Below are positions 5,425 through 26,211 of a DNA stretch of 58,074 nt, piece by piece; the first letter of the stretch is position 1, and every line of letters begins with the position of its first letter. Source of the stretch: a virus. Taxonomy: Duplodnaviria; Caudoviricetes. The stretch spans positions 1 to 58,074 of the IMG/VR virus record IMGVR_UViG_3300025120_000055. One strand, written 5' to 3'. Under the pieces are notes generated by a model. It saw only the letters and a list, made by a program, of their open reading frames with translations, made no database searches and was not told the DNA's origin. The translations under genes were made by a program, and so were the position numbers.

Positions 5425-5822
5425 TGCCAGTTCCAGTCCCTGACCTTTTACAAATGACCCATCCCGGTTATCTTATGGTAGATAGTCAGATAGTTATTTC
5501 AGAAAACAGTTTACCAATGTATCTTGATTTTTGTCGTTGTATGACAAAGAGATTCGAGCACTACGGTGAGTTAAACATCACACCTCCCGACATGTTCAAG
5601 TTGCTCGCAAAGTCTTTTCAAACAGTCTTTGAAGATGATAATCCTGTAACATTCTTTCCAGCATATCATCTGATACCTCGTTTGCTTGAAGAGTTTGAAT
5701 ACACAATAGAAAACATGACTTCAGCGTTTCAAGAAAGCCCTAGAATTACATCATTCTATAGAAAAGTAGCCCAAAAATTGCGACAGTGTTTTGAATACCA
5801 TATACTGGGGGATATATCATGA
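5421..5822 (+). CDS. Hypothetical protein
   Basis: 133-aa ORF with GGTGAT RBS, overlapping both neighbours. Confidence 0.65.
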   Translation: MMPVPVPDLLQMTHPGYLMVDSQIVISENSLPMYLDFCRCMTKRFEHYGELNITPPDMFKLLAKSFQTVFEDDNPVTFFPAYHLIPRLLEEFEYTIENMTSAFQESPRITSFYRKVAQKLRQCFEYHILGDIS

Positions 5823-7081
5823 CGGGCGGTATGATGGGGCGAACCTCCGACACAAGAATATACAATCCCCGTTCTGAATCTTCAGAAATGTTCAGGGCTA
5901 ATCATGAAGATGATAGGCCGCCAGCAGGTATGCAAGACGCCACAGATAGAGAAAGTAGACGAGATAAGCGTCAAGAAAAGAAAGAGCGTGAAGAAAAAGA
6001 AGATAAAAGCATTCGACACATCAAAGTTAGAGGTCATCATCTTGGTATAGATAAAAAGAAAGAGGGTGAAGAAACCGATGAGGAAGAAGATAAATTCAAA
6101 CCTCGTGGTTCTACTGATAACCCAGCCACTCAGACAATGCCAAGCGGCGCTGGTGGATTTATGACGAGTCTCGCTATGGGTGCTAAAGGGCCGGGCGCTG
6201 CTGGTGGAGAGATGATTCAAATGTCTGAACCTATGGATATTGCTTGGCAGTTACTAAAACAAGATACGATTCAAAAAAAAAGTTCTCGTTCAGTAGCCCG
6301 TAGGCGTAAAAAAGAAGGATACGCTAAGTGGCGACCATCCACAGGACAGTTTGAACGCCCAAAAGGAGGCGGTGACCCCCGTAATGCTTCATCGAGGCGG
6401 TCAAAAAACATCAGTCGTAATCTTCCTTTAGGGAGAAAAACAGGGTTAATGAGGCCACATCTTTCTGTAGAGTTTTCTCACCGAGGTCTTGCTAGTAAAC
6501 AACCTATGTCAAAAGACCCGCAAAAATACAATCAATACTTGGCTTCTCAAGATGCTCGCAAACTACAAGGCGGAGTAAGAAACACAACTACTCCTCACAT
6601 GAGACATAGCCAACGCTCATTCATATCAGGTCAAACTGGTGGTGGTCGTTTGACAAATACTCTACAATATCCTCGTGTTCCAAGACCACGACTTCATTCA
6701 GTTCGTGCGCCGAGTATAGTTCCTCCTAAGATGAAAATGCCAAAACTGCAAAAACCAAAGATGCCAAGTATGGTTACAATGAGTGAAGATGAGCCACAGC
6801 ATAGCGATATTCTCAAATCTAATTCTTATCAAGCAGCATTAATGAGAATCGCTCTCAAAGAGATTCGTGAACTAATGCGTGAAAAGAAAGATAAAGATAG
6901 AAAAACAAAAGGTAAGGGAAATCCCGATACTGCTGGTGCCGCCAGTAATTTACCTAATTATCCAGCCAACAATCCTGTTTCAACTACTAAACCTGAAGGT
7001 GGGACTGAAGATGAAACAGACGCACGCAAGTTTGGGTTAGACCCCGGTGCTAATGTAGGTAGAGGGAGTGGGCGAGTTTGA
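5819..7081 (+). CDS. Low-complexity protein with highly basic central region; putative internal head/DNA-binding protein
   Basis: 420 aa; R/K/P-rich core between PMDIAWQLLK and SDILKS motifs. Confidence 0.65.
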   Translation: MTGGMMGRTSDTRIYNPRSESSEMFRANHEDDRPPAGMQDATDRESRRDKRQEKKEREEKEDKSIRHIKVRGHHLGIDKKKEGEETDEEEDKFKPRGSTDNPATQTMPSGAGGFMTSLAMGAKGPGAAGGEMIQMSEPMDIAWQLLKQDTIQKKSSRSVARRRKKEGYAKWRPSTGQFERPKGGGDPRNASSRRSKNISRNLPLGRKTGLMRPHLSVEFSHRGLASKQPMSKDPQKYNQYLASQDARKLQGGVRNTTTPHMRHSQRSFISGQTGGGRLTNTLQYPRVPRPRLHSVRAPSIVPPKMKMPKLQKPKMPSMVTMSEDEPQHSDILKSNSYQAALMRIALKEIRELMREKKDKDRKTKGKGNPDTAGAASNLPNYPANNPVSTTKPEGGTEDETDARKFGLDPGANVGRGSGRV

Positions 7082-9384
7082 GTGTATTAGTTCGTAAATC
7101 TATTATTCTCAAAGGTGATGGTGTTTATGCATATTATGGTGGTCAAGGTCACTTACTGACAGCACCCCCACCCGAAGCGATGCACCCTGACCCGAACACA
7201 CCTGATGTACCACTTTATGCACATTATGGTGCTTACAGACCTCACAAGTCAGGTCATGCTGGAATGGGTGAATTAATCCCCGGTAAGTTTGGTGTAGGTA
7301 AACATGGCGAGATGGTATACATTGATGAAAACGGTGAGGCTCACCATCACGGCATAGATGGTGTCATTCACGCAATAGGTGAATCGCTTGAAAAAAATGG
7401 TATGCTTGGTCAAAACCATCCTATACTCGGAAAGTTAGACCCTAAATTGTTAGTGCAAAGAGCCATTGATATGACAAACAGCGAACACGCTGACAAAACA
7501 GGCGCTCAGAATATACCCGATGTAGACGATATGAAACATCGTAAAATTCGCATCGCTGGTTACGGTGGTCGTAGACCAACTGTTAGAGCGCACAATACCC
7601 CAAAAGGCGATTACATCACAGCCTATACCAACAGACCTAATCGACAAGAAAGAATAGGAGCGATGATTGAATCTTATGCTGTTCCTTACAATCATAACCT
7701 TTCAAGAATACTACTCGAAACATTGGGTCTTGATGATTTAGCAGGTTCTGAGTTTCTTGATAACCCACACATAGATATCGCTGACCTTCATCCTCGTGGT
7801 CGTAGAATAAGAGGAAAAGGTGGCGACGCTATTCAGCAAAGACCCGATGGTTTTTATTTACCCGACAGTCATATCAAAAACTCCCCTAAAGGCGTTACTC
7901 ATAATGCAGCCCACACAGGTATTAGGTCTTGGGAAATTCAACATCACACTCCTGATTTTTTGCACATGACAGGAAACAGCAAAGGTAATCCTAATGCTAT
8001 AGCGAGTGCTAATCATCATATTGATGAGGCTTTAAAACTTATAGACCCTGATAAAATACCTGATGTTGAAGTACCTATTAATGCAACTCCTGACTCAGCA
8101 GGAGTTCCTAGATACACAATGATGAATCTAAGAACAGTGCTTCGTAGCCCAAGTATGCGAGGTAATATGATTAATGAGTTATCAAAAACTCCTGCTTTTG
8201 TAAAACTATTTGGTCGTGTTAATTCAGGCGGTGTTAATAGACCCGGTGTAGGGAAGAGAGCATTTGAACATATCATACAAGCATTCGGTGGAGAAGATAG
8301 TTATAACACAATAAAAGACCATGCTGTTGCTGGTGCAAAATTAGCAACCCTCCCTCCAAATCTTAAAAAATTAGGAACACATGCAAACGCTGCTAAATTT
8401 TACGCTAAAGCCATGATGAGTGGCCCACATGAGGAATATGATAGCGCTCTTCGTGCTTATATGCCGAGAGATGCCGAAGGTAACATAGATGGTGCTACAC
8501 TTACCGCCATGGGTCTAAAGATGCAAAGTTACGATACAATACCACAAAGAAGACAAGCCACTCAAGCAATTGCTGATTTAGTTAGCGATGCTTTTGGTCA
8601 TGAAACTCGTCGTGCATTACCGGAAGAAATACCAACAACATCACTAGCATCTCGTATGATAATGGGTTATCCTGAAAAATTGATTGAGAAATTACCTGAG
8701 CATATTCCTTTCTACGAAGATGCTGGTCTTGCTCCTGTACAAAGACAAAGCGTTACACAACTTCAACCTCAACCATCAACCGTAAGACCGGCTGCTGAAA
8801 GACCCCCTCCTGCTACTGTCGCTCCCCCAGTAGCGGTACAACCTAGACCACCAATTGAACCTCAATCAATAGCAACACCTCCTAGGGGAGCACCATCTTT
8901 TAGACCACAATCACCTGAGTTGGTGGCTGCTAGGCAACAAGTCGGTCAGGCAGACCCTATGCGACTAAGACAAATTATGGAGGCTGCTGGAGTTCGTATG
9001 CCTCAAGGCCAAGGTCAAGAACTCTCACCTCGTGAAGCACAGTTTCAGCAAATGATGGGTGACCCTCGCCAACAGTTACTAACTCAATATATGAACAAAT
9101 CAAATCAAGAACTATCTCCAATGGATAGAGTAATGAAGGCCATGGAAGATATGCAAATGGATGACGCTCGTGGTGATTCAAAAATTATGAAGCATGCTTT
9201 ACCTCGTCAAATTAACATCGCTGACCTTCATGGGATTAATCATCTTGCCAAGAGTATTAATCTCACACCAGTAGATATTCGTTCAATTGCACATTCACAT
9301 GGAGATTGGGAACGCATCGCAAAGAAACTCAATGTTTCAACTGATGTTGTAAAGGTTGTCAAAGTAAGCGTAGGTGGTATCTGA
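7078..9384 (+). CDS. Hypothetical protein, putative internal head protein (His/Gly-rich domain, Pro-rich linker, C-terminal HTH-like domain)
   Basis: 768 aa; N-terminal VRKS/ILKG; C-terminal GDWERIAKKLNVSTDVVKVVK. Confidence 0.65.
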   Translation: MSVLVRKSIILKGDGVYAYYGGQGHLLTAPPPEAMHPDPNTPDVPLYAHYGAYRPHKSGHAGMGELIPGKFGVGKHGEMVYIDENGEAHHHGIDGVIHAIGESLEKNGMLGQNHPILGKLDPKLLVQRAIDMTNSEHADKTGAQNIPDVDDMKHRKIRIAGYGGRRPTVRAHNTPKGDYITAYTNRPNRQERIGAMIESYAVPYNHNLSRILLETLGLDDLAGSEFLDNPHIDIADLHPRGRRIRGKGGDAIQQRPDGFYLPDSHIKNSPKGVTHNAAHTGIRSWEIQHHTPDFLHMTGNSKGNPNAIASANHHIDEALKLIDPDKIPDVEVPINATPDSAGVPRYTMMNLRTVLRSPSMRGNMINELSKTPAFVKLFGRVNSGGVNRPGVGKRAFEHIIQAFGGEDSYNTIKDHAVAGAKLATLPPNLKKLGTHANAAKFYAKAMMSGPHEEYDSALRAYMPRDAEGNIDGATLTAMGLKMQSYDTIPQRRQATQAIADLVSDAFGHETRRALPEEIPTTSLASRMIMGYPEKLIEKLPEHIPFYEDAGLAPVQRQSVTQLQPQPSTVRPAAERPPPATVAPPVAVQPRPPIEPQSIATPPRGAPSFRPQSPELVAARQQVGQADPMRLRQIMEAAGVRMPQGQGQELSPREAQFQQMMGDPRQQLLTQYMNKSNQELSPMDRVMKAMEDMQMDDARGDSKIMKHALPRQINIADLHGINHLAKSINLTPVDIRSIAHSHGDWERIAKKLNVSTDVVKVVKVSVGGI

Positions 9385-10538
9385 TGACGCAGTATGTAGG
9401 TGTAATTCGTAAAGAATTATCGGCTGTGATGACTCCACAAGGGCCACAAATGCAACAGAATATTGGAGGTAATAATCCAGTAGACATGAAACCTGACCAA
9501 TTTGGTCAGATAGGAGTTAGAAATCAAAGAGCACATCAAGAAAAAAATCCTCAACCTGTGGGAACAGGTAATGTGTTGTTATATGATGCAGAAAATAACC
9601 CTACCTCACGAGTGCCTGATGCTATGGCAACTAGAGCAGTCGAAGAAAGAGCAAGAAAAAGAGGTGGAATTGGACAAAAAATAGGTCAAGGTATTGGTGG
9701 GGCGATAGGTGTTATGGGTGGGTTAGTTAGTCTTGCTAATGCTGGTGCTGCTGGTCAAGATGCTATCAGTGGTGGAGTTAATGCTTATCAAACAGGTCAA
9801 TATCTTACTCAAGAGGCTAAACCTAGACTTGGAAATCTTGTCGGTACTATTGGTGCCCATACAGCACTTCCTGTAAGAGTTACAAGAGAAAAAACATCTG
9901 ATGTAGCACCTATGGTTGCCTCTCCTACTAACACTCCTGCTGCTACTCCTGTTGCCGTTGCTGCGCCGACTGCACCGTTACCTACTGACAAAAGAAAAGT
10001 TCTTGGTGTTGATAACTATGAAGGAGCACAAAAAATACAACAAGAGGCTATGAGTATGTTAGGAAATCCTCACTATAATGCTGGAGCGTTTAGTGCAGTT
10101 AACACTACTGATGACCAAGGTAGGACTGTAGGTGTGCAGGGTGCTGGCCCTGCTCAAAATCAATATGACCCTACGGCTATTAATCCAAACCAACTCAATC
10201 CAATTACACCAGCAGGAACACTTCGACTAACTAAACCGGATGGCACTGCTTATCAATCCCCACAACAGGTGGCTATTACTAAACCTACAGTTGCTCAGCC
10301 AACCACACAACAAGACCCCGGCAAAGTGATAGCGAATGAACTGGGCACAATTCAACAATCCCTACCGCTACCTGACCCCAATGAACCAACAGATGCCGAG
10401 AAAACAATAGAATCTAGTGCACAGACTGGTAAAACGATAAGCGACGCTCTTAAGATAAAGATGTTGAAAGCAGAAATTTCAGGTCGTCGGGCTGCTTACG
10501 ATTACTTTACTAAAATGTTTATCGAGGTGAAACCATGA
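9384..10538 (+). CDS. Hypothetical protein with glycine-zipper hydrophobic segment; putative ejection/pilot protein
   Basis: GGIGQKIGQGIGGAIGVMGGLVSLANAGAAG segment; P/T/Q-rich remainder. Confidence 0.6.
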   Translation: MTQYVGVIRKELSAVMTPQGPQMQQNIGGNNPVDMKPDQFGQIGVRNQRAHQEKNPQPVGTGNVLLYDAENNPTSRVPDAMATRAVEERARKRGGIGQKIGQGIGGAIGVMGGLVSLANAGAAGQDAISGGVNAYQTGQYLTQEAKPRLGNLVGTIGAHTALPVRVTREKTSDVAPMVASPTNTPAATPVAVAAPTAPLPTDKRKVLGVDNYEGAQKIQQEAMSMLGNPHYNAGAFSAVNTTDDQGRTVGVQGAGPAQNQYDPTAINPNQLNPITPAGTLRLTKPDGTAYQSPQQVAITKPTVAQPTTQQDPGKVIANELGTIQQSLPLPDPNEPTDAEKTIESSAQTGKTISDALKIKMLKAEISGRRAAYDYFTKMFIEVKP

Positions 10539-12678: not shown

Positions 12679-12687
12679 GGTGATAAA

Positions 12688-13612: not shown

Positions 13613-14860
13613 GTGGAGGTCAAATATATGTGGGGTTCGGCTATGATTGAAGATGACTTTGGTGAGGTCTATACCCACACCCCTGTTTCCACTGAAGAAA
13701 TCAAATCAATTAAAAAACAGCATCATTTTGCACCAAACGGTGATGGTTGGTTTGAAGCATCACTTGGATGTAATGCGGAAACTCTTGTAAAAAGATTAAG
13801 AAAAGCAAGAAGAAACAACAAAGACAATCGTAGTGAAATTGATAATTTCATCAATGATGTTAGGATGATTAAATCATTAGAAACTAATATGACAATCAAA
13901 TCTTTGTCTTGGGCTGAACCTTATGAAGACACTATCAAACAGTTAGGATTAAATGACCGTAAACTCAAAAGTCTTCGTAAGTTTGGTGAGACACGCTCTT
14001 TGAATCTCGAAAGAGCATGTATGATGTGGGATAAGGCAGAATTAACTCTTAAAATGCTAGATGAGCATGAAGATGTATGGGGTGCAGAAGAACAACAGGC
14101 TTGGGCTTCTGCTATGCAAGATAGAAGTTCTGCTAGAAAAATGTGGTCTAATTCACTTCATCCAATTGACAAACTTAGCAAGGCTGAGAAGAATTTTTTA
14201 GAATTTGCCTCTCAAGAATTACTCGAAAAAGGCCCAATGAAAGTAACTACCATTCGTAGTAATTTTTCCGATGCTGGTATGCTTAAAAAATCTCAAACTG
14301 ATAGAAAACTCGCTACACTCATGAACATGTATGGTGAAGATATGGATATTGTAAAAGGAGCACTACGAGGAACTTATGTTCGTATTTCCAGTGATGGACT
14401 GGTGTTAAAAGATGTGTGGTCTTATAGTGCTGGTTTTATTGATGCTGACGGATACATTACTATCACTGAGCGTGGTGAACCTCGTGCTGGAATGATAGCC
14501 ACAGGTGATAGAGGAAAAGTTCACTGTGAAGATTTGTACAAAACGCTAGACTGTGGTGTACTTTCTACTGATAATAAAGTGTACAAAGATTCTCAAAGAA
14601 GTCAACATAGATTACAATTCTATTCTAAGGCTGACTTGCGAAAGTTACTTCATGGGGTGTCCCCTCACTTAAAAATGAAGTCTACTCAAGCAAAGGCTGT
14701 ACTAGCCTATATTGATGAAAAAGATAAAACTAGAAAGCAAGAATTAAAACGCTTAGTAAGATACGAAAATTGGAAGGATGATAAGCGAAAATCTAACGCT
14801 TTGTTACAAGAATGGGGAATTGACATGGATACTATTGGTAAATACGGAGAGGGTCTATGA
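13613..14860 (+). CDS. Protein with C-terminal single-motif LAGLIDADG endonuclease domain and uncharacterised helical N-terminus
   Basis: WSYSAGFIDADGYITI ... HRLQFYSKADLRKLLHGVSPHLKMKSTQA (I-CreI-like layout); not inside an intein or intron. Confidence 0.8.
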   Translation: MEVKYMWGSAMIEDDFGEVYTHTPVSTEEIKSIKKQHHFAPNGDGWFEASLGCNAETLVKRLRKARRNNKDNRSEIDNFINDVRMIKSLETNMTIKSLSWAEPYEDTIKQLGLNDRKLKSLRKFGETRSLNLERACMMWDKAELTLKMLDEHEDVWGAEEQQAWASAMQDRSSARKMWSNSLHPIDKLSKAEKNFLEFASQELLEKGPMKVTTIRSNFSDAGMLKKSQTDRKLATLMNMYGEDMDIVKGALRGTYVRISSDGLVLKDVWSYSAGFIDADGYITITERGEPRAGMIATGDRGKVHCEDLYKTLDCGVLSTDNKVYKDSQRSQHRLQFYSKADLRKLLHGVSPHLKMKSTQAKAVLAYIDEKDKTRKQELKRLVRYENWKDDKRKSNALLQEWGIDMDTIGKYGEGL

Positions 14861-16647
14861 TGGCTGAAGAAAATCAAAGCATCGTTAGTAGATTTTTGTC
14901 TGCTCTATCAAGTCCATTTAGAAGAAGAACAACTCCTCAACCTCAGATGCCGTTGTATACTACTGGTATACAAGAGCCAGTTTTAGCACAAGGTATTACT
15001 TTACCAGCGCTCTATGCTGTCTCAAATGAAAATTTAATTCTCAGAACTGTTATTACAAAACTTGGTCAAGAAGTATTCCGTAGAGGTTACTACTGGGAAA
15101 AGAAGTTTCGTATGAAATGTGTTGAATGTGAAGAAGAGTTTCAACATGAAGTTGATGAATGCTCGACCTGTGGTGGAGAAGTTCGCAAACCTAACCCCGA
15201 CCAAGTATTGTATCCTAAGTGGTTACTTCAACAAGAAAACTCTATGGAACAAAGTTTTATGCAAATCCTTCATGAGATTGAGCGTGATTTGAATGTTGTA
15301 GATGATGCATTCTTGTTAATGATTAAAGAATACTATGTAGATGAAAAGACTGGTGAAGTACAATTCTATAGAATAAAAGAGTTAATTCGTGGTGACCCAA
15401 TCTTTATGCGAATTATCGCTGATAAGCGTGGTGTTCGTGGTGGGCGATACAAGATTTGTCGTATCCATCGTGACCAAGTTGCTTATCCGGGTCAAGAGCC
15501 AAAATGTAAAATATGTAACTCTCGTTTAGTTGATGCTCACTATGTTAACATGGCGGGTTCAGGTAAGAATCAATATTTTATGAAAGGTGAAGTTCTCCAT
15601 GTATCAAAATATAATCCGGGTAAATTATATGGGCGTGCTCCAGTAAACACGCTATGGCGACAAGCCATGACTCTTACTGCTATGGATAATTATATCTATA
15701 CTGCGTATCAAAAGCGTAGAATACCAAAGGGTATTGTGAGCGTCACTACAGATAATCTCGAATCTATGAAGTCTTTTTGGAAAGGCGTTGATGAAAAAAT
15801 GGAGCGTGACCCACACTACATTCCTAAAGTTGGTATCGAATCTTCTTCAGGCCGTGGTGGTGTGAACTGGGTCAAGTTTATGGATACACTTGAAGAGATG
15901 CAATACATAGCAGTGCGTGATGAAATAAGAAATCGTATTGCTGCTTTTTATGGTGTGTCTTCTATCTTTATGATTGATAATGGTAAATCAGGCGGTCTGA
16001 ATAACGAAGGTTTGCAGATTCTTGTAACTAATAGAGCAGTTGAATACGGACAAAAAGTGTATACAGATTTATTATTCCCTAGAATGTTGCGTGAATTAGA
16101 TGTCACTGATTGGAAATTAACTCTATATCCAAACGAAGAGGAAGATGAAATTACAAGACTACGCCGTGATGAAATGGAAGTTAATCTTGCTCAAAGAATG
16201 GCTATGCTTGGATATCAGCCTGAATTGTTAGAAGAAGGAGATAGAGATGTTAGGTTTAGTTACAAAAAGAAACCACCACAACCTGAAGGTCAACAACCAC
16301 AAGGTCAACCTCAACCACAAGGTCAACCTAGACAGGCTATGCCACCACAAGGTGGTATGCCTCCTAGACAGGCTATGCCACCTAGACAGGGTATGCCACC
16401 ACAAGGTGGTATGCCTCCACAAATGATGCAAGGTGGTAGAATGCCTCCACAAATGATGCCTCCATCACAGCCCGGAGGAGAGGGGATGGGAATCCGCACT
16501 CCACGCTCTCCGGCACGACCTCAACAAAGAGGTAGTCCGGGGGCGGGTGCACCTGTAACTAGTGTACAACAAAGAGGACTCCCTCCTAATATCCAACAAC
16601 AAAACAGTAGAACAATCCAAGATAGCAGACGCCTTAGAGGGGCGTAA
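14857..16647 (+). CDS. Portal protein with Zn-ribbon insertions and P/Q/G/M-rich C-terminal tail
   Basis: ERDLNVVDDAFL, GEVLHV...LYGRAPV, IPKGIV, RNRIAAFYGVS portal motifs; position between TerL and protease. Confidence 0.9.
   Translation: MMAEENQSIVSRFLSALSSPFRRRTTPQPQMPLYTTGIQEPVLAQGITLPALYAVSNENLILRTVITKLGQEVFRRGYYWEKKFRMKCVECEEEFQHEVDECSTCGGEVRKPNPDQVLYPKWLLQQENSMEQSFMQILHEIERDLNVVDDAFLLMIKEYYVDEKTGEVQFYRIKELIRGDPIFMRIIADKRGVRGGRYKICRIHRDQVAYPGQEPKCKICNSRLVDAHYVNMAGSGKNQYFMKGEVLHVSKYNPGKLYGRAPVNTLWRQAMTLTAMDNYIYTAYQKRRIPKGIVSVTTDNLESMKSFWKGVDEKMERDPHYIPKVGIESSSGRGGVNWVKFMDTLEEMQYIAVRDEIRNRIAAFYGVSSIFMIDNGKSGGLNNEGLQILVTNRAVEYGQKVYTDLLFPRMLRELDVTDWKLTLYPNEEEDEITRLRRDEMEVNLAQRMAMLGYQPELLEEGDRDVRFSYKKKPPQPEGQQPQGQPQPQGQPRQAMPPQGGMPPRQAMPPRQGMPPQGGMPPQMMQGGRMPPQMMPPSQPGGEGMGIRTPRSPARPQQRGSPGAGAPVTSVQQRGLPPNIQQQNSRTIQDSRRLRGA
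16327..16416 (+). repeat. Five tandem 18-bp units encoding P-[RQ]-[QG]-[AG]-M-P in the portal tail
   Basis: cctagacaggctatgcca / ccacaaggtggtatgcct / cctagacaggctatgcca / cctagacagggtatgcca / ccacaaggtggtatgcct. Confidence 0.9.
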
Positions 16648-18144: not shown

Positions 18145-18156
18145 GGGGGCGATTGA

Positions 18157-21100
18157 TTGATTGAAACACCTACTGACTGGTATTATAGAAGTAGAAATGA
18201 ACTTCTAAAATCTGTGTTAGACGGCCATGATTGGTTAAACTCATTAGGTGAGTATAAATTTGCTAAGATGAATTTAGAAGCACACAATGAGATAATACCA
18301 CAAACGACATTAGATGATATAACTAACTCTATTCTAAAAGCAGCCAATGAGCAAACTTTTGAAAGAGGCGCTGAAATGCGCTTAGGTTCACATCCTTGGC
18401 AGAATAGAGTTCGTGAAAGAGTCTTACATGAAGTAGCGGCGTCGTATCCCCATGTTGAGTTTGCACAAGGCCAGCACTTTGCTGAATCTCATCCTCATCA
18501 TCCGAAGCATCACCCTCTTCGTCAAAAAAATACCATCACTGGTAGGTCGAAAATGATAGAAAAATTAAGACAATTCTACTTACCTTCTGCACCGGGTGAA
18601 AGAAGTTTGTCATACGACTATAAGATGGCTGAAAGAGGGAAAGAACAGTTAGAGCGTAAAAATGAAAATCCTTCTGTTATAGGTAAAAAAAGATTCGACA
18701 CTAACGAAAATAAAGAAGTAGAACATCATAATTTCTTAGGCCCATTAAATGACCATTATCTACATGATATTTATTATGATAATTTTTTGGAGTGGCAAAG
18801 AAATAATCCTGACACTGTAAAAGAAATGATAGAAAAGTTTCCTAAACCGGAAGAACATGAGCATGCTTTACAATTAAAACACTTTGAAGAGTTTGCTGAT
18901 AGTTTAGAGAGTGACCAAAATCATGGGACACTTTACGACCCAAAAGAAAATTTAACTGAAGCAGAAATTCAAGAGATAACATATAGTGGTGATTTTGAAT
19001 CTTTAACCCCTTTTCCAATTAAAGAAGGTTTAGGTTATGATGGTTACTTGTATGGTCTTGAGTTTCTTCCACCTATTGATAGATTCAAAGTGCTAAAACA
19101 CCTTCATGAAAAAGGAACAGATGCTCATGATGCTCAAACTATACAACTATCAAATGGTAAAACAATAAGTGCTGGTAGGATAAAAAGAAATCTTGCTCAA
19201 CGATTTACTGGTGAGTTTGACCGCTATATGCGACCTCAACACATGCATGGAGCGAATGTTAAGAAACACTATGAAACAATAGATGACGACCCAAGAGATA
19301 GCGATAGAGTCATGAAGCAATCATTACTCGATGCTATGAGATTAGTTCCTCATGAAGAAGGTAGCACTATTAGTGTATACGATAAATTACTAGAGCAGTA
19401 TAATACTATGTTGAATAATCATAGAGATGAGGGTACAGAAAGTAGTCTTACTCATTTACCAATTAGAGGAATGATGCAAGGTAGAAAAATAAACAAAGGT
19501 GCTATTCAGCACCCAACTAGTCATGGAGAAGGTATACTTCAAGAATTACAAACTTTAGATGATGACCCGTTTACATTTACAGATTTGAATACTATGTTAG
19601 GTTTGTTAGGATACAATAGTGACATGACTGCTATGGATAATCATCCGTTATTACTAGACTTTGAAAACCCGTTGGTAGACCATGATAAAGTAAAAGAAAT
19701 TATCATGAAGGCTCAAGATATGTCGCAAGTATATCAACAACAAAAACCAATTCGTAATCACGATTTCTTCCATCATGGTGGAAAGAATGGCCCTGATATT
19801 AACGATATTCCTGAAGAAGAAAGAGAGCATTACCTCACAGATGACGAAGGTAACATCATAGGATTAGGGGCACACTTTGCTGATGAGTTCCATCATCAAG
19901 GTGGTATGGGAAGAAATGTTTTACATTACTTAGAAATGATGCACGACTCTCTACCAAAAGACAATAATGGGTATTCTATTATTGGTAGAGTAGATGGAGG
20001 AGAATTAATTCCTAATCCAAAAACAGTAGGACTATGGGGAAGATATCTCCCCTCATTATTTTCTAAAGATAGTGGAACTCATCAAGGCCCACACGGTATT
20101 TCATCTCTTTGGGACTCTTCTAGTCATATAAGAACTAAACCAAGAAATAACAAAAATCTACCTCATAGGCAAATGTCGTCTTTGATAGGTGGTTATACTA
20201 ACTTAGTTAGATATATGACTGATAATGAAAGAAAACAATACTTCAGTGTAGGTCAATCTAACAGGGGAGAGTTAGGTGGTAGGAATTTCTTTACTACAAA
20301 TCCTATCAACGCAATAGGTGGTAAGGGTGGTAAGGCTACTCAGACCATAAACAATCAAATCCACAGTGGGAGATTAATTACTTCGGGTGGAAGATATCAT
20401 CCGCCTCATGAGCCAATGAAAAAGAAACAACGCCTTGGAAGAAAAGATATCCGTGCTGATTCAAAATTAGCCCATAGTGAAGGTAACTTAACAACATACA
20501 GAACTATACAAGGGCATAAGAAATTAGCAGGTAAAGATTTACCTCTTACTAATCAACAACAACAACAAATTGATGAATTAGACCAAAAGTATGATGAAAT
20601 AAGTAATATAATAATGAATTTTGAAGAAGGTTCTGAAGAATATGGTAATCTTAATTTTCAATTACATGATATAGAAGGTAAAATTGAAGAAATAAATAAT
20701 CAGGCTGCTAAAGAGAATAAAAATTCCTATAATCAAATATCTGATAACGCTCAGATAAAAGATGAAAAAGACCATGAAGCCATAATGATTATGGCGAAAA
20801 AATTAAGACCTGAGTTTTTGAAGAAAGACCCTGATGCGTTTAATCCTGAGATGCCTGACAAGTTCTTAGCCAACACTTCTCGTTTGATGAGAGATGCTAA
20901 TATGGCTTTATTGAGATTACCTCATTCGGTACATGGACTATTTACTCATGGATATGGAGAATATGAAGATGTTCATCAAAGCGCTGCTGAGTTATTAACA
21001 GATGATGAAGATGAAGTTGTATCACCACATCACACTATTGCTAGTGTTCTAGGTAATGCTGGTAAACTAATTGAACCTACCATGTCGCTAGCAAAAGTTA

Positions 21101-23571
21101 GAGAGTTACTAAATTTACCTGATGATGATGCACATAATGATATGATTGAAAGATTGTTAGAAGGTCGAATGTCTCCTGTTAAAGTTTTAAAACACGGTGA
21201 TTTGTTAGGCACTGGGGTTAGTTTTGCTGGTGAAGAGGCTAACAGTATGTTTACTACAGACGACCATCATTCAGTAATAAATGGTATATTAGATGAGCAT
21301 ATTTCATCAAGACCTCACCACACTGATTATTCTCGAAGGGCGAGTGCTGACAAAAAATTCGGTAGAAACTTAGGTGAAAAATATGCAAAACATCTTGGCT
21401 TAATAGACAGATTGTTTAGACCTAATCAACAAAACCAATTAGACATGCATGGTTTATCTCGTGTTCAATTATCTCATCGTGATGGTGAATATGGTACAGG
21501 TAAGAATGCGCTTGGAGCAACAACAGGCGATATAGATGGGCCAGTAAATAGAGCCAAGAGTTTAGTTCATGACCTTTATTTGTTCGACTCTCAAGAAGCA
21601 CAGACCATGGATAAAGTAGTCGCCCCTGCTACAAAAGTCAAACTGGCTGGTTATAGGTCACAACCTATTCACCCAGCCACTTCTACAGGTGCATCAGTTC
21701 AAGACATGTATATTTCAGGTGGTATGGATAGTGGATATCCAATGACACCATCAGTCGGTATGGAGTTCCCCGGTAACAAAAAGGCTGTAGCCGGAACAAA
21801 TACAGAAGAGCAATTCTTACATTCTATCCCTGAAGAAGTGATGAATGACCTCCATGGTGAAGAGGCCGTGCAACAGGTCTTATCATCTAATTATCAAGTT
21901 CCAGTTAACACTACTAATATGAGTAGAACAAATGTAATGGCGCTACCAGCCAACTCCGATATGTCGTTGTTTACAGCAAGCGACCCTACTGAAACTCTTA
22001 CCGTATTGATGAATCCTGAAGCATTGTTAAAAGAAGATAAATCAAAACCACCACCCATTCTACCTATGCATAGAATATTTTCTTTGAAAGATTTTGATGC
22101 ACTTAGAGGATTTAGTGGGGATTGGGTTGTATCATCTTTCTATGATGGTGAGAGAATGATAATCACTAGAAAGAGTAACAAAGTTTCTGCTTACGATGAA
22201 AGTAACGATAATGTAATGTTAACTACTGATGATAAAAAACACTTGAAAGCACTAACTGAGAAAAACTTCATGGTAGACGCTGTTAGAATGAAAAACAATA
22301 TCCATCTCATAGATATCCTAGAATATGATGGGACTAACATAGCAGATATGACCGTAAAAGAGAGATTGAAAGTTCTTCGAGGTCAATTTGACAGTCATGA
22401 GCATGTATTAGTTCCCAGCCCGTTTGATACAAGAATTACTGAAGATGGTGGTTTAAAGTCTACTGTTGAGAATTTACAAAACGAACATAAGCAACTATTA
22501 CTTCGTGATGCTAACTCTACATACATGCGTGGTGAGCGTAGACATCCTAAGTGGTTTTTACTTCGTAAGAACAAGAATGTTAGTTTCATTATATTAGATG
22601 TTAGAGGTAAAGGCCCGTACACTTATCGCTTAGGGGCAGGGCCACTTGACTCCGAAGGCTTTGGTAATAGAGGTGTAGATTATGAAGGTAAACAATATCT
22701 TGATGTTGGAACAATCAAAAGCCCTAAGCCATTCAACGAAGGTGATACTGTGTCTATATCTGTATCGGGTGTTAAGAAAAGAAATCGAAATGGTAAAACA
22801 TTGTATGATGTAACCTCCTCAAAGATAGTAGGAGAAGCAGAAGCAGAAAGCCCTGCGAGCCTAGAGACTCTATCTTTACTAGCAAAATCCCACCCTGTGA
22901 TACCAGTGGTGTATGATATAGTCCTCAAAGAAAATGAAATATCAGTCGTTTTTGAGGGGTTAGACGAGGTAGTTTACAAAGCAGAATCATCTCATACTGG
23001 TAATTGGGTACACTCTCCTAAATCAATAATAGGTGAATTAAGTCATTCTGATTATACTTTACAGTTGGCTGAAAGCGTTAGACCACTATGGAGTCAGGCT
23101 GTATCTTTGATGTTAAAAGGTGTGGATAAGAAAAAAGATAGTGTAGTTGAAGAGATTATTCCTCAACCCACATATCATTCAATGCATGATAAGAAAAATA
23201 GAGAACATAGTGAAGAACAGTCACATGGTATAATAGATGCTGATGATGAGAAAAACCTACTCAAAGTAAAGATGCTAAAGACTCTAAGTAGAATAGCAGA
23301 TTTTTCAGATAGAATTGATGCTTTACAAAAAGAAAAAATGTCAGGTGGCCCCGGTGCTCGTGGTATGGGTATCAATGTTGGAAGCGCTATAGAATCACCA
23401 AGAGGCCCAACTAGTCTTACCAGTGAAGAGAGTGTACCTGATTGGGATATGATTGAGCGACCAACTGAAGACCCCGAAGAAGAATACCCAATTGCCATGA
23501 TGAGGAGACTTAAGCAGAAAAATGCTAAGCAGTCTCCTACTTATGAAGCAGAATCAGATTATGAGGCATAG
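18157..23571 (+). CDS. 1804-aa multidomain protein with degenerate ATP-dependent DNA ligase (adenylation + OB) domain near the C-terminus
   Basis: WVVSSFYDGER, IDILEYDGTNIADMTVKERLKVL, LLLRDANSTYMRGERRHPKWFLLRK, then an OB-like region (YRLGAG...YLDVG); His-rich N-terminal ~1290 aa unassigned. Confidence 0.8.
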   Translation: MIETPTDWYYRSRNELLKSVLDGHDWLNSLGEYKFAKMNLEAHNEIIPQTTLDDITNSILKAANEQTFERGAEMRLGSHPWQNRVRERVLHEVAASYPHVEFAQGQHFAESHPHHPKHHPLRQKNTITGRSKMIEKLRQFYLPSAPGERSLSYDYKMAERGKEQLERKNENPSVIGKKRFDTNENKEVEHHNFLGPLNDHYLHDIYYDNFLEWQRNNPDTVKEMIEKFPKPEEHEHALQLKHFEEFADSLESDQNHGTLYDPKENLTEAEIQEITYSGDFESLTPFPIKEGLGYDGYLYGLEFLPPIDRFKVLKHLHEKGTDAHDAQTIQLSNGKTISAGRIKRNLAQRFTGEFDRYMRPQHMHGANVKKHYETIDDDPRDSDRVMKQSLLDAMRLVPHEEGSTISVYDKLLEQYNTMLNNHRDEGTESSLTHLPIRGMMQGRKINKGAIQHPTSHGEGILQELQTLDDDPFTFTDLNTMLGLLGYNSDMTAMDNHPLLLDFENPLVDHDKVKEIIMKAQDMSQVYQQQKPIRNHDFFHHGGKNGPDINDIPEEEREHYLTDDEGNIIGLGAHFADEFHHQGGMGRNVLHYLEMMHDSLPKDNNGYSIIGRVDGGELIPNPKTVGLWGRYLPSLFSKDSGTHQGPHGISSLWDSSSHIRTKPRNNKNLPHRQMSSLIGGYTNLVRYMTDNERKQYFSVGQSNRGELGGRNFFTTNPINAIGGKGGKATQTINNQIHSGRLITSGGRYHPPHEPMKKKQRLGRKDIRADSKLAHSEGNLTTYRTIQGHKKLAGKDLPLTNQQQQQIDELDQKYDEISNIIMNFEEGSEEYGNLNFQLHDIEGKIEEINNQAAKENKNSYNQISDNAQIKDEKDHEAIMIMAKKLRPEFLKKDPDAFNPEMPDKFLANTSRLMRDANMALLRLPHSVHGLFTHGYGEYEDVHQSAAELLTDDEDEVVSPHHTIASVLGNAGKLIEPTMSLAKVRELLNLPDDDAHNDMIERLLEGRMSPVKVLKHGDLLGTGVSFAGEEANSMFTTDDHHSVINGILDEHISSRPHHTDYSRRASADKKFGRNLGEKYAKHLGLIDRLFRPNQQNQLDMHGLSRVQLSHRDGEYGTGKNALGATTGDIDGPVNRAKSLVHDLYLFDSQEAQTMDKVVAPATKVKLAGYRSQPIHPATSTGASVQDMYISGGMDSGYPMTPSVGMEFPGNKKAVAGTNTEEQFLHSIPEEVMNDLHGEEAVQQVLSSNYQVPVNTTNMSRTNVMALPANSDMSLFTASDPTETLTVLMNPEALLKEDKSKPPPILPMHRIFSLKDFDALRGFSGDWVVSSFYDGERMIITRKSNKVSAYDESNDNVMLTTDDKKHLKALTEKNFMVDAVRMKNNIHLIDILEYDGTNIADMTVKERLKVLRGQFDSHEHVLVPSPFDTRITEDGGLKSTVENLQNEHKQLLLRDANSTYMRGERRHPKWFLLRKNKNVSFIILDVRGKGPYTYRLGAGPLDSEGFGNRGVDYEGKQYLDVGTIKSPKPFNEGDTVSISVSGVKKRNRNGKTLYDVTSSKIVGEAEAESPASLETLSLLAKSHPVIPVVYDIVLKENEISVVFEGLDEVVYKAESSHTGNWVHSPKSIIGELSHSDYTLQLAESVRPLWSQAVSLMLKGVDKKKDSVVEEIIPQPTYHSMHDKKNREHSEEQSHGIIDADDEKNLLKVKMLKTLSRIADFSDRIDALQKEKMSGGPGARGMGINVGSAIESPRGPTSLTSEESVPDWDMIERPTEDPEEEYPIAMMRRLKQKNAKQSPTYEAESDYEA

Positions 23572-23574
23572 GGT

Positions 23575-23585
23575 TTTATTAATAT
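23575..23585 (+). promoter_or_regulatory. Possible archaeal TATA box upstream of protease/MCP genes
   Basis: ttttattaata about 30 nt before the GTG at 23613, in one of the few intergenic gaps. Confidence 0.35.
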
Positions 23586-23612
23586 AGGTAAACAAATAGA
23601 GAAGGAATTAGT

Positions 23613-25001
23613 GTGCTACGAACAAAGCGGAGAGAACTTGAACTGCTCAAAGGGTCTAACGACCTTATTGTTGCAGGTTATGCCTCAGTTGAACTAGTAG
23701 ACAAACAAGGAGATTTAATTACAAGGTCAGCATTGAAAGACGCTTTCAAAAAATTCATGTCAGACCCCATGTACAGGAATGTTCAATTAGCGCACTCAAA
23801 TATTCAAGTTGGAGAAGTAATATCAAATTATACTGACAATCAAGGGAGGTTATGGAAAAGCGAAGTTGACGATGCTGGAATGTTTGTTGTAGTAAAATTA
23901 CGAAACGACATTGAGAAAGCACGAGAAGTAGCATCCGAGATACGAAAAGGAAATCTAACAGGATTTAGTATCGGAGGTCAAGCATTCAAAAGAGTTAACA
24001 AAAGCGATAAAAACCATGGCTCTTATCAAGAAATCTCAAAATTAGAATTACACGAAATAACAATATGCGAAAAAGGAATAAACCCGGAAGCCACATTCAA
24101 TATACTAAAAGAAGATAAAAAAAACAAGGTGAATAAAATGACTGATGAAGTAATGGAACAAATGAACGATGTACTAACCCGCTTAGAAGGGCGACTTGAC
24201 TCTATGGAAAAAGGTGAAATGCCACCCGGACTCAAAGAGCACATGAAGAACAAAAAAGGTAAGAAAGACCACGACGATGACGACGATAAAAAAGACGACA
24301 AAGAGAAGGGTAACTACATGAAAGATGAAGATGACGACGATAAAAAAGACGGCAAAAAGAAGTCTGAATATTCTGATGTTATCACTGCTGAATACCTAGA
24401 TTGGATGGAACATACTCTAAAGTCTGCTGGTGTTGACACTGGCGCTGCTCGTACTCACTTTGATACAGTAGCAAAAGCAAACCTTGGTTCTACCCCTGAA
24501 GATATAGGAGACGGTGCTAACTACTTTGCAGGACAAGTAAAAGGTCGTGTTCAAGAAGGTGGCAGCCCATCTACCAACGCTATCCAGCGTGCTGGTCTAA
24601 GTGGCAAAGGTGGAAAAGTTGAGAAATCTGATTTCATTAACGCTTCTCAAGTAGATTCTCACAGATTAGAAGAAGCATACGGTGTCTTTAAGGCTGCAAA
24701 GCAAGAAGAAGAGTTCCGTAAGTCTCTTGAACAGAACTTTGAGGGTCGTTTCGCACAAGAAAATCAAGCAGAAATAGCAAAAGCACAAGCACAAAACTTC
24801 GACGCTCGTGCTCCTCTTGATGAAGTTATGAAGGCTCTTGGGGCACTCAATGACCGAATCGACAACATCTCTAGCGGTGCTGGCGAAACAATCGCAAAAT
24901 CTGCTGGTTCCAATGTTGAAGTACCAAGTACACAAGACTTGGCTAACATGACATGGGAAGAAGTACATCAACTCGCTGGAGGATTATACCGAGGCGAGTG
25001 A
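23613..25001 (+). CDS. HK97-type prohead protease fused to scaffold protein
   Basis: IVAGYASVELVDKQGDLI, LAHSNIQVG (catalytic His), GFSIGG (catalytic Ser), LELHEITICEKGINPEATF; charged coiled-coil C-terminal half. Confidence 0.93.
   Translation: MLRTKRRELELLKGSNDLIVAGYASVELVDKQGDLITRSALKDAFKKFMSDPMYRNVQLAHSNIQVGEVISNYTDNQGRLWKSEVDDAGMFVVVKLRNDIEKAREVASEIRKGNLTGFSIGGQAFKRVNKSDKNHGSYQEISKLELHEITICEKGINPEATFNILKEDKKNKVNKMTDEVMEQMNDVLTRLEGRLDSMEKGEMPPGLKEHMKNKKGKKDHDDDDDKKDDKEKGNYMKDEDDDDKKDGKKKSEYSDVITAEYLDWMEHTLKSAGVDTGAARTHFDTVAKANLGSTPEDIGDGANYFAGQVKGRVQEGGSPSTNAIQRAGLSGKGGKVEKSDFINASQVDSHRLEEAYGVFKAAKQEEEFRKSLEQNFEGRFAQENQAEIAKAQAQNFDARAPLDEVMKALGALNDRIDNISSGAGETIAKSAGSNVEVPSTQDLANMTWEEVHQLAGGLYRGE
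24138..25001 (+). CDS. Putative nested in-frame scaffold protein
   Basis: In-frame ATG at 24138 preceded by AAGGTGAATAAA, just after the protease domain ends. Confidence 0.6.
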   Translation: MTDEVMEQMNDVLTRLEGRLDSMEKGEMPPGLKEHMKNKKGKKDHDDDDDKKDDKEKGNYMKDEDDDDKKDGKKKSEYSDVITAEYLDWMEHTLKSAGVDTGAARTHFDTVAKANLGSTPEDIGDGANYFAGQVKGRVQEGGSPSTNAIQRAGLSGKGGKVEKSDFINASQVDSHRLEEAYGVFKAAKQEEEFRKSLEQNFEGRFAQENQAEIAKAQAQNFDARAPLDEVMKALGALNDRIDNISSGAGETIAKSAGSNVEVPSTQDLANMTWEEVHQLAGGLYRGE

Positions 25002-25006
25002 AACTC

Positions 25007-25044
25007 AGGACAATAAAAAAAAATATGGAGAGATAAATATGGCA
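25007..25044 (+). promoter_or_regulatory. Conserved leader/RBS, copy 1 (before MCP)
   Basis: aggacaataaa...atggagagataaatATGGCA; the 20 nt at 25025-25044 are identical to 26235-26254. Confidence 0.75.
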
Positions 25045-26211
25045 AGAAATTATGTAAGAACAGTAACAGACATGGAAAGATACTACTACGGAGCAGGTAA
25101 CTCAATGGGCTATACCTACACAGGAAGCGAACTATTGAAGTCCGATGCACCAATGCTCAGCACAACTGCTGGAACATACCAAGCAATCTACGGTAGAAAA
25201 GTTTGGTCACAACTAAACCAAGAATTTAACGCATTTTCAATTCTACCTAAGAAACCATGGGAAAGAAGTGGATGGAGAGTTATCACAGCAAAGCCAAACG
25301 GTGGAGCAGTTCACGGTGGAATAGCAGAAAACGGTACACTACCTGAAACTGTCAAACCAACCTTCCAACATGTAGCAGCAAAACCAAAGACAATCGCTCA
25401 CTCATTCGATGTAAGCGAAGTCGCAGTATTCCTTGCTGACAAAGATGACGGTATGGGTGACATGCGCTCAGTTCTAAAAGAAGAAATGGGTAAGCACCAC
25501 GCTGAAATGGTTAACCTAATGCTACTACAAGACACCAGCACAGTCGCTGGAAACAACTTTGAATCACTTGACAGAATCACTGCCGGTGACGGTGCAGGAA
25601 CAGGTCTAACTGGTCTAAGAACTACTGGCGGAAACGAGCATGTAGACGCAGCAGCAGACCTAGATATCTACAGTATTGACCGAAGTGCAAACGCTTGGTC
25701 ACATGCTGAGGTAAACTGCGCAGCAGACACTCAAGCAGCAAACAAGCGTGTTCTATCATTAGACCACCTAGACACAATCTTCCAACAAGTTTGGGAGCGT
25801 GGTGGTAATCCAAAGGTTATCCTAACTGGATATGATACTCTAATGAGACTACAACAACTTCTACAAGCACAACAAAGATTCATGGAAGAGAAGAGAGTTA
25901 CACCAACCTACAACGGTGTTAAGGGTGTTCCGGGTATTGAAGCCGGTTTCATCGTAGCAACCTACAATGGTGTACCAATCATCCCATCTAAGGATGTTGT
26001 CGATGCTGACGGACTAAGCAGAATGTACTTACTAGACACTGACTACATGTACTTCAGTACAGCAATACCAACTCAATACTTTGAGTCCGGTATCGAAACT
26101 GGTGACCCATTCGCAATCAACCGCCTCGGTCAAGAGGGACTTTACCGAACAATGGGTGAAATATGGACTACTTTCTTTGGAGCACAAGCAAGCATTCGTG
26201 ACTTGAAGTGA
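25039..26211 (+). CDS. Major capsid protein (HK97 fold)
   Basis: Directly after protease/scaffold; 390 aa; LPKKPW, GIAENGTLPET E-loop, FESLDRI, TYNGVPIIPSKDV, MYLLDTDY; high-expression codon bias. Confidence 0.93.
   Translation: MARNYVRTVTDMERYYYGAGNSMGYTYTGSELLKSDAPMLSTTAGTYQAIYGRKVWSQLNQEFNAFSILPKKPWERSGWRVITAKPNGGAVHGGIAENGTLPETVKPTFQHVAAKPKTIAHSFDVSEVAVFLADKDDGMGDMRSVLKEEMGKHHAEMVNLMLLQDTSTVAGNNFESLDRITAGDGAGTGLTGLRTTGGNEHVDAAADLDIYSIDRSANAWSHAEVNCAADTQAANKRVLSLDHLDTIFQQVWERGGNPKVILTGYDTLMRLQQLLQAQQRFMEEKRVTPTYNGVKGVPGIEAGFIVATYNGVPIIPSKDVVDADGLSRMYLLDTDYMYFSTAIPTQYFESGIETGDPFAINRLGQEGLYRTMGEIWTTFFGAQASIRDLK

Follow-up and report, generated by a model that had tools for sequence, protein, structure and literature searches.

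What does a short motif ending in lysine do in the head proteins of an archaeal tailed virus? The window analysed here, IMG/VR record IMGVR_UViG_3300025120_000055 at its full length of 58,074 bases (the whole assembly), is part of a magrovirus-like archaeal tailed virus and carries its head-assembly module; every long open reading frame (ORF) and every feature described below lies on the + strand, and coordinates are those of the window. An original prediction held that a tripeptide of two hydrophobic residues and Lys, followed by Ser, Ala or Gly, recurs in the major capsid protein (MCP), the protease-scaffold protein and a series of unexplained ORFs, and marks the sites at which roughly 8-10 precursors are cut inside the prohead. 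We found that this protease-type signal is real, specific for Lys and for its orientation, conserved among relatives and located at domain edges. The S78-family protease of the window probably cuts the MCP, the scaffold and accessory proteins after Lys in a hydrophobic-x-Lys (h-x-K) context within the prohead. As judged from the sequences, such processing is very likely for the MCP and the scaffold and reasonably likely for four to six accessory proteins; by analogy with other viruses, we tentatively suggest that the accessory fragments may be retained or ejected as cargo. The figure of 8-10 precursors was too high, about 6-8 proteins having sequence support with the MCP and the protease-scaffold included.

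Magroviruses are among the most abundant archaeal viruses of the surface ocean and none has been cultured; to our knowledge, nothing is known of their head maturation or cargo. In the window, the portal gene (14857..16647) forms the upstream boundary of a head-accessory gene block. Three small ORFs, ORF16693 (16693..17037), ORF17048 (17048..17395) and ORF17392 (17392..18144), are followed by ORF18157 (18157..23571), which encodes an accessory head protein of 1804 aa and predicted polyprotein, by the 462-aa prohead protease-scaffold fusion (23613..25001; Peptidase_S78) and by the 390-aa MCP (25039..26211), whose HK97 fold was assigned via Pfam, phrog, AlphaFold2 (AF2) and Foldseek.

Enrichment of the motif in head proteins

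All 32 peptides listed in the original prediction exist in the named ORFs, each once and at the place given, and 23 of them match the regular expression proposed with them, [ILVMF][ILVMAERF]K[SAG]; the remaining 9 differ at P1', P2 or P3. Expected counts, for this expression and for the broader pattern h.K[SAG], came from composition-preserving shuffles of each protein. The anticipated enrichment was found, with 36 matches observed against 10.8 expected in ORFs 5819-26211 and 17 against 13.8 in the rest of the window. The protease-scaffold by itself holds 11 matches where 1.2 are expected, and the 6068-aa ORF further downstream is depleted (2 observed, 5.3 expected). Controls were run because the expression had been derived from these same sequences. 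In the six portal-to-MCP proteins, hhK[SAG] occurs 22 times against 5.4 expected (p 0.002); neither the reversed motif (3 vs 5.4) nor the version with Arg replacing Lys (2 vs 3.4) is enriched, the Glu, Gln and Asn versions give observed/expected ratios near 1, and the Asp version reaches 10 against 5.1.

An unbiased reduced-alphabet scan ranked hhK first of 323 3-mers and hhK-small first of 464 4-mers (z 4.3) in the six head proteins, as against 357th of 482 and 565th of 1239 in the rest of the window. The k-mer scan by itself is not decisive, since another 4-mer of the head proteins, hp-h, comes close with z 4.2. Upstream of TerL, the three ORFs show weak enrichment with the original expression (6 vs 2.1) and none of significance with h.K[SAG] (7 vs 5.1). 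Leaders ending in h-x-K were found at the N-termini of 5 of the 14 ORFs of the region and 3 of the 28 elsewhere (Fisher p 0.066), which is at most suggestive of leaders on all N-termini of the region. The form of the motif had to be amended in part: Lys at P1 stood, P3 is hydrophobic and P2 is free, contrary to the restriction first placed on it, and P1' is mostly, not always, Ser, Ala or Gly.

Lys specificity and recurrence in relatives

Sequence analysis revealed that Lys inside the originally proposed motif is kept at 0.78 on average, against 0.40 for other Lys residues (n 22 vs 191, Mann-Whitney p 5.6e-6). Among Lys residues kept in at least 85% of relatives, P3 is a conserved hydrophobic residue for 29 of 39 in the scaffold, ORF16693, ORF17048 and the 1804-aa protein, compared with 12 of 55 in the portal and twelve tail proteins (Fisher p 4e-7); this count left out ORF17392 (0/1, an alignment problem), the MCP (4/13), ORF5819 (1/17), ORF7078 (8/8) and ORF9384 (0/0). 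At conserved basic h-x-K sites of the head proteins, Arg occupies 4 of 1561 alignment cells (0.3%), compared with 13.1% at other head sites, 8.5% at h-x-K sites of portal and tail and 7.4% at their other sites, the alignments being built from related loci whose rows are related, so that cell counts are not independent events. The near absence of Arg argues that Lys itself, rather than positive charge, is required. The sites lie at borders of hypervariable or indel-rich segments, and in or beside low-confidence linkers of the AF2 models. Conservation of the sites originally listed held for the MCP, most scaffold sites and several accessory sites, and failed for ORF9384 K10 and K362, scaffold K370 (FRK/S, 24/57), ORF17392 K30 (IFK/G, 0/30) and ORF7078 K674 (MNK/S, 0/8), the last three being single sites at which Lys is poorly kept or lost.

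The signal recurs in relatives. Across the 27 related loci whose head orthologues add up to 2200 aa or more, in some of which the orthologue of the giant accessory protein is only 24-27% identical, hhK[SAG] was observed 456 times against 119 expected; the Arg version (91 vs 86) and the reversed motif (103 vs 119) served as controls and were not enriched. In HVTV-1, a cultured halovirus that had no part in deriving the motif, h.K[SAG] occurs 19 times against 7.9 expected in the head proteins gp113-gp120 (p 0.002), 10 times against 5.0 in the accessory proteins gp113-118 alone (p 0.024), and 4 times against 7.2 in the tail proteins. BLASTP of the window proteins against HVTV-1 gp113-136 gave matches only for the protease, the MCP and three tail proteins, and none for the accessory proteins. 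As the same signal is present in a cultured virus, the prediction is testable at the bench now.

The predicted capsid protein leader

Profile searches assigned the MCP to SU10_MCP (Pfam PF17236, 34.8 bits against a cut-off of 24.1) and to phrog_24667 (E 1.5e-58). Its AF2 model (predicted local distance difference test, pLDDT, 83; predicted template modelling score, pTM, 0.80) has pLDDT below 50 at residues 1-4, 20-25 and 27-34 and shows the HK97 fold thereafter. Foldseek matched the model to Mic1 (E 5e-15) and also to SU10, T5 and HK97 capsids, with encapsulins among the matches, and a PDB sequence search with the MCP returned 0 matches. The MCP is 33% identical to that of HVTV-1; MCP and protease are 26-34% identical to their counterparts in the haloviruses HVTV-1, HCTV-1 and HCTV-5 and in a Methanofastidiosa virus, and close MCP relatives are encoded on more than 600 IMG/VR stretches.

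The ELLK/S first noticed at MCP residue 34 (K34 codon 25138-25140, the Lys ending at base 25140) marks the end of a 34-aa propeptide, predicted from conservation and the AF2 model. K34 is kept in 64 of 64 close relatives, with P1' alternating between Ser and Ala. Since the close relatives listed are too alike (at least 82% identity) to be informative for the site, we searched a library of 50%-identity clusters. In the alignment of 120 full-length representatives, 31-57% identical to the window protein (121 rows with it), the site Lys is present in 114 rows, 92 of them in the K34 column and 22 one residue later; two of the seven rows without it have Arg. P3 is hydrophobic in 93 rows, and the P1' residue is most often Ala (62 rows), with Ser and Thr in 11 rows each. 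The leader that precedes the Lys varies from 16 to 108 residues and is hypervariable and unalignable; downstream, the consensus ADAPVL(S/T)TTTG forms a conserved mature end. HVTV-1 MCP has GMSK/ADNLLDTTD at the equivalent place, after a 102-residue leader. Read from the alignment, this succession of variable leader, conserved Lys and conserved mature end is the signature expected of a maturation cut, and the mature MCP is predicted to start at S35 after loss of the 34-residue leader.

The protease-scaffold and its tail

The protease-scaffold is built of a 13-aa leader (LLK13/G), an S78 protease domain (residues ~14-166, bases 23652-24110) ending NILK166/E, a Lys/Asp/Glu-rich linker and a helical scaffold part. 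Its residues 15-168 match Pfam PF04586 (41.9 bits against a cut-off of 21), and the head maturation protease family phrog_23555 is matched at E 1e-14. H61 (AHSN) and S119 (GFSIGG), invariant in 30 sequences, resemble the FNHK and MSVGF stretches of HK97 gp4 and are the putative catalytic pair of the S78 protease. A PDB sequence search with the protease-scaffold gave chance-level matches only, with no residue-level alignment to a solved protease. As originally proposed, the signal brackets the protease domain at both ends and marks most scaffold sites. LLK13 is invariant, right after the hypervariable leader; ILK166 closes the domain, and the HVTV-1 protease has VVSK/AD within one residue of that point. 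At eight of the ten sites proposed in this protein Lys is kept in 57 of 57 relatives. Within the scaffold, K200, K270, K288, K338, K407 and K429 are kept in all 57 and K390 in 54, their flanks often being variable or gapped. Conserved h-x-K sites inside the protease domain fit self-destruction.

After IAK429/S, the C-terminal tail of the scaffold (residues 430-462, 24900..24998) contains a helix-like NMTWEEVHQLA conserved in 57 relatives and is a candidate capsid-binding end. ORF17048 encodes 115 aa with a helical N part, an indel-rich linker, LLK83/S and then the tail IHLMSWEEIHEMAEQ (bases 17297-17392). Here [LI][LI]K83 is kept in 28 of 30 orthologues amid the hypervariable linker, and the tail IHxMSWEEIHEMAEQ in 30 orthologues. 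Profile-profile comparison by hhalign aligned this tail with the last 34 residues of the scaffold (ETIAK/S...NMTWEEVHQLAGG) over 31 columns, with probability 88% and E 3.1e-6. By this sequence comparison, the two proteins have the same arrangement at the extreme C-terminus, a predicted cut site followed by a spacer and an MSWEE(I/V)H helix, which we predict to be a detachable capsid-binding tail: since the predicted cut site precedes the tail, the latter would detach after assembly. Complex prediction for MCP and ORF17048 scored 0.00 in two runs in which the controls were not folded, and speaks neither for nor against binding.

The other accessory proteins

In the unexplained ORFs, the signal was borne out at domain edges of ORF17048, ORF17392, ORF16693 (K56), ORF18157 and ORF5819 and at the N-terminus of ORF7078. 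ORF17392 (250 aa) consists of a hypervariable Cys-rich N part, KMEK161/A (17872-17874) and a conserved C-terminal domain. In 31 of 31 members, an h-x-K/[SAG] lies 22-27 residues upstream of an E[ST]GGQT anchor, where the hypervariable part ends; the column-wise count of 10/30 for K161 is an alignment artefact, the site being found in 31/31 when anchored on the C-terminal domain. The N part (17392-17870 and orthologues) varies greatly in length and carries CPxCG and MKMGC-type Cys repeats, and the C-terminal 90 residues are well conserved. In ORF16693 (114 aa), VKK56/A (16858-16860) is kept in 31 of 31 relatives with Ala, Ser or Glu at P1', followed by a variable linker (downstream conservation 0.23); further conserved h-x-K sites at K5, K22, K41 and K73 have a bulky P1'.

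ORF18157 has orthologues of 1734-2139 aa in related loci, at 34% mean identity. Its conserved h-x-K sites are K18 (18208-18210), K61 (18337-18339), K1292 (22030-22032), K1577 (22885-22887), K1654 (23116-23118), K1703 (23263-23265) and K1725 (23329-23331). K1292 and K1577 are retained in 33 of 33 orthologues, K1654 in 31 of 33, and K1703 and K1725 in 97%; K18 (18/33) and K61 (16/33) are present in every row with an aligned N-terminus but two, which have Asp, many rows being unaligned there. In the AF2 model of residues 1280-1804 (pLDDT 68), K1292 belongs to a disordered lead-in; model residues 20-298 then form a folded domain that has K1577 at its end, immediately ahead of a low-confidence linker, and K1654 ends the next small domain before another low-confidence stretch.

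The module bracketed by K1292 and K1577 (residues 1293-1577, 22033..22887) has a ligase fold. When excised, it matches DNA_ligase_A_M (Pfam PF01068) at 29.5 bits, above the cut-off of 26.2, compared with 23.1 bits, below the cut-off, for the whole protein. Foldseek related it to archaeal DNA ligases (E 7e-14), and in the PDB the archaeal ligase 4eq5 was matched at E 2.4e-6. Motif I of 4eq5, KYDG, aligns to FYDG in the module, in a segment that is low-scoring though motif-anchored, and none of the 33 orthologues has Lys in that column; motif IV EGLMAK faces QLLLRD, and motif V WLKIK faces WFLLR. Because the motif I lysine (KxDG), which is adenylated, is replaced, the module should not be filed as an active ligase. 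Evidently it is the "structural-module ligase" of the magrovirus paper (PMC5434244), and its sequence suggests a pseudo-ligase, whereas the magrovirus literature has assumed an active enzyme. Pfam scans at E up to 1 of the ORF18157 pieces gave nothing credible besides the ligase domain, and a database search with residues 62-1292 gave no usable match. A strongly conserved stretch, ESPRGPT...LPDWDM, stands near the C-terminus (residues ~1745-1765, window 23400-23500) in otherwise low-confidence sequence and may be a binding motif. By eye only, ORF7078 (GDWERIA) and the 1804-aa protein (PDWDMIE) may have a W-containing motif in common at the C-terminus.

For the ORFs upstream of TerL, only 7-8 relatives were found. 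ORF5819 (5819..7081, 420 aa) has one cassette PMDIAWQLLK147 (6230-6259) and an ILK333/S (6815-6817) whose Lys is kept in 7 of 7 relatives. Its relatives (loci L084-L088) have 385-948 aa and one to four copies of [ES]PMDxAWxLLK, the 948-aa protein of L087 having four; between the copies whole modules are inserted, some of them Cys-rich or acidic. In ORF7078 (7078..9384, 768 aa), the N-terminal VRK7/S and ILK12/G are kept in 7 of 8, including relatives at 35% identity; VMK687/A and LAK725/S lie in a uniformly conserved stretch of the C-terminal domain and are uninformative. Pfam scans at E up to 1 found nothing credible in ORFs 5819, 7078, 9384, 16693, 17048 and 17392. Two of the proposed precursors were dropped: ORF9384, whose listed sites are not conserved, and ORF13613, which is homing-endonuclease-like and whose relatives are too close (81% mean identity) to inform on sites.

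Proposed processing and its alternatives

The results enable us to propose a putative model of head maturation. Initially, the MCP and the protease-scaffold would co-assemble on the portal. The C-terminal tail of the scaffold, and the same tail on ORF17048, would hold both proteins to the shell, and the giant 1804-aa protein and the other accessory proteins would enter via leaders or tails. The S78 protease, fused to the scaffold, would then cut after Lys at exposed h-x-K sites with mostly Ser, Ala or Gly at P1'. It would remove the 34-residue MCP leader, yielding mature MCP from S35, and free itself from its 13-residue leader and from the scaffold. The tails would be detached, and the scaffold, probably together with the protease, would be chopped into pieces small enough to leave. 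Cuts are further predicted at domain borders of ORF16693, ORF17048, ORF17392 and ORF18157, and probably of ORF5819 and ORF7078, ORF18157 giving a ~1230-aa piece, the ~285-aa ligase-fold module and smaller pieces. Finally, the large fragments, being unable to leave, might stay with the DNA and be delivered to the host. That the accessory proteins lie inside the prohead, forming an inner body or being ejected, is suggested by analogy with T4, phiKZ/SPN3US and P1.

We further advance, as a speculative possibility, a modular protein-delivery system of magroviruses and their halovirus relatives, in which precursors composed of swappable modules would be cut by the protease in the prohead and injected with the genome. 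The modules would be separated by cut-and-target cassettes ending in Lys, namely PMDxAWxLLK, the short N-terminal leaders and the detachable MSWEEIH tail. The ligase-fold passenger, lacking the catalytic lysine, may serve as a binder of DNA ends or nicks.

Cleavage might be confined, as in HK97, to the MCP leader and the protease-scaffold, the accessory tripeptide being kept for a shared binding or folding element. The strongest signals do lie in the scaffold and the MCP, the 1804-aa protein taken by itself is not significant with the original expression (5 observed vs 2.5 expected, p 0.11), and some conserved h-x-K sites belong to folded domains, where cutting is improbable. We nevertheless regard this as unlikely, given that K1292 and K1577 are invariant at 34% mean identity and bracket a folded module, the ORF17392 site stands at a domain border in every member, ORF17048 has both cut site and tail in common with the scaffold, HVTV-1 gp113-118 are enriched without the other head proteins, and Lys is almost never replaced by Arg. 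More credible, if still on the doubtful side, is the idea that the accessory proteins are cut but act as auxiliary scaffolding or assembly factors, degraded and expelled with no cargo delivered. ORF17048, with its helical N part and scaffold tail, has the appearance of a small second scaffold, and the pieces predicted from ORF16693 and ORF17048 could leave by virtue of their small size; those of ORF18157, in contrast, exceed scaffold pieces in size by far and include a folded ligase-like domain, and large folded pieces should be hard to expel through capsid pores, judging from HK97 and T4 proheads. A large packaged protein encoded near portal and protease genes is, moreover, known in P1 (DarB, 250 kDa; PMC9024508, excerpt). 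A helix-end (C-cap) habit, or chance matching of a loose short motif, would dispense with any shared cleavage signal. The motif is indeed short, 9 of the 32 listed sites miss the original expression, several sites end predicted helices, and hp-h scores nearly as high as hhK-small. Arg suits helix ends as well as Lys, yet it is neither enriched nor tolerated at these positions; the stretch around the MCP site is non-helical and of low confidence; Ala is the commonest P1' in the MCP family; no excess is seen in the tape measure and other helical tail proteins; and the pattern recurs in HVTV-1 and fits the known HK97 cut. We thus consider this explanation very improbable.

The preferred reading, cleavage of MCP, scaffold and accessory proteins by the S78 protease, has points against it as well, beside the relatedness of the alignment rows. 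The expression came from the same sequences, a concern that the unbiased scan, the related loci and HVTV-1 lessen but do not remove. Excesses also appear elsewhere: mild ones in tail orthologues of the related loci (115 observed vs 73 expected) and in the Arg version over the HVTV-1 head set (14 vs 9.4, p 0.09), and an enrichment of h.K[SAG] in the TerL-to-portal group (14 vs 7.1, p 0.01), where 6 of the 14 matches fall in the endonuclease-like ORF13613. The 1804-aa protein has no BLAST similarity to HVTV-1 gp113-115. Several conserved sites coincide with the C-terminal ends of predicted helices (model residues 298, 375 and 446), which a structural motif for helix ends would produce too. The folded protease domain contains eight conserved h-x-K sites, and mature MCP or portal another four, so the tripeptide by itself is not enough to specify a cut. 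K1703 of ORF18157 precedes Pro in relatives, a conserved hydrophobic P3 accompanies only 1 of the 17 conserved Lys residues of ORF5819, and no site is conserved in ORF9384 (K10 in 2 of 5 relatives, K362 in 1 of 5).

Comparison with known systems

The window resembles HK97 gp4/gp5 in its S78 family, its HK97-fold MCP, the position of the protease gene directly upstream of the MCP gene and the Lys-before-Ser cut. An excerpt of PMC10275583 places the cut of the HK97 MCP by its S78 protease at K103/S104. The HK97 sequence reads TFNK/SLGSD at this cut, with LIK/S, LTK/S and KK/S in the delta domain and AMK/S, LTK/S, RFK/S and SIK/S in gp4. The window differs from HK97 in that its scaffold is fused to the protease and not to the MCP, its MCP leader has only 34 aa, and an accessory block including the 1804-aa protein carries the same signal; we know of no such accessory cargo in HK97.

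In T4 (gp21), phiKZ (gp175) and SPN3US (gp245), a single prohead protease recognises a short P3-x-P1 motif in the MCP, in the scaffold or core and in many internal proteins, all of which it processes, and propeptides hold several copies of the motif, as proposed here. The motifs of the T4 and phiKZ proteases end in Glu. Those enzymes are of the T4 gp21 lineage, whereas the window has an S78 protease with a predicted Lys cut, in an archaeal virus with a genome of ~100 kb. SPN3US gp245 recognises A-X-E, cuts behind it and favours Ser at P1' (PMC10052503, excerpt). Excerpts of PMC9024508 and PMC12810830 describe P1 DarB, encoded beside the portal and protease genes, as packaged via a short terminal capsid-targeting sequence, and DarA and the MCP as losing N-terminal pieces to the prohead protease, the P1 MCP being cut at E120/S121 (PMC9024508). 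Like DarB, and compared without any claim of sequence similarity, the 1804-aa protein is very large and encoded beside portal and protease genes; the candidate targeting elements here are instead the C-terminal helix shared with the scaffold and the short N-terminal leaders. Encapsulin cargo-loading peptides and the coat-binding C-terminal helices of P22-type scaffolds are short terminal helices that guide a protein to the inner surface of an HK97-fold shell. The MSWEE(I/V)H tail is likewise terminal, and encapsulins are among the MCP fold matches; it differs in following a predicted cut site, by which it would detach after assembly, and its binding is a candidate property drawn from sequence.

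The structural module with an embedded ATP-dependent DNA ligase, as given in excerpts of Philosof et al. 2017 (PMC5434244), matches the window, with the difference that the ligase is here one module of the 1804-aa protein, bracketed by conserved Lys and without the motif I lysine. The magrovirus passages of PMC5434244 and PMC11706807 contain no mention of cleavage sites or packaged proteins, and those of PMC5434244 give the ligase no role in processing or packaging. Multi-substrate processing by a prohead protease is already known; what would be new is its combination with an HK97-type, Lys-specific enzyme in archaeal viruses, together with anatomical details such as the detachable tail that two proteins share, the cut cassettes repeated on either side of swappable modules, and a ligase-fold passenger that is catalytically degenerate. 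The cleavage rule (hydrophobic, any residue, Lys / small) yields a predicted mature MCP and a predicted fate of the scaffold. Were the accessory proteins packaged, protease-processed capsid cargo, as known from T4-type proteases and jumbo phages, would be extended to archaeal viruses and to proteases of the HK97 type, and the natural cut-and-target cassettes could serve to bring foreign proteins into HK97-fold shells. Modular delivery, if true, would have no described precedent as a capsid cargo system among archaeal viruses or as one that depends on an S78 protease.

Other genes of the window

Compared with the description in excerpts of PMC5434244, the window has the magrovirus hallmarks of a halovirus-like MCP, portal and protease, with nuclease and ligase genes within the structural module; the archaeal-type replication module (DNAP, MCM, RFC and others) is not within the 58 kb. 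Family scans identified TerL (10535-12019), the homing-endonuclease-like ORF13613 (13613-14860) and a tape-measure-like protein (33642-34958). The endonuclease match of ORF13613 covers residues 270-377 only; its residues 1-260 (window 13613-14400) are Lys-rich, belong to no family and hold six h.K[SAG] sites. The portal was assigned by phrog_18178 (E 1.6e-63), with Pfam Phage_portal at 33.5 bits under its cut-off of 39.1, and its C-terminus (window 16270-16647, residues ~470-596) is a long low-complexity tail rich in Pro, Gln, Gly and Met with MPPQGGMPPRQ repeats; ORFs 3502, 7078 and 9384 also have Q/P/M-rich stretches of this kind. An HMGL-like enzyme (12688-13602, Pfam E 1.8e-25) is encoded between TerL and portal, inside the structural module, and is ~69% identical in five related loci; the magrovirus paper, in the excerpts of PMC5434244, reports having seen no auxiliary metabolic genes. 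The 6068-aa ORF (36221-54427), a single ORF downstream of the tape-measure region, presumably encodes a giant tail or host-recognition protein. Among the tail genes, a SAP-domain protein with an acidic tail is encoded at 32476-33039 (Pfam E 3.5e-10). A 240-aa ORF at 1617-2339, 84-96% identical in related loci, matches no Pfam family at E up to 0.01 and shows, by eye, small-GTPase-like motifs: GAPMVGKTT (P-loop), DIGGQERF (DxxGQ) and ANKAD (NKxD).

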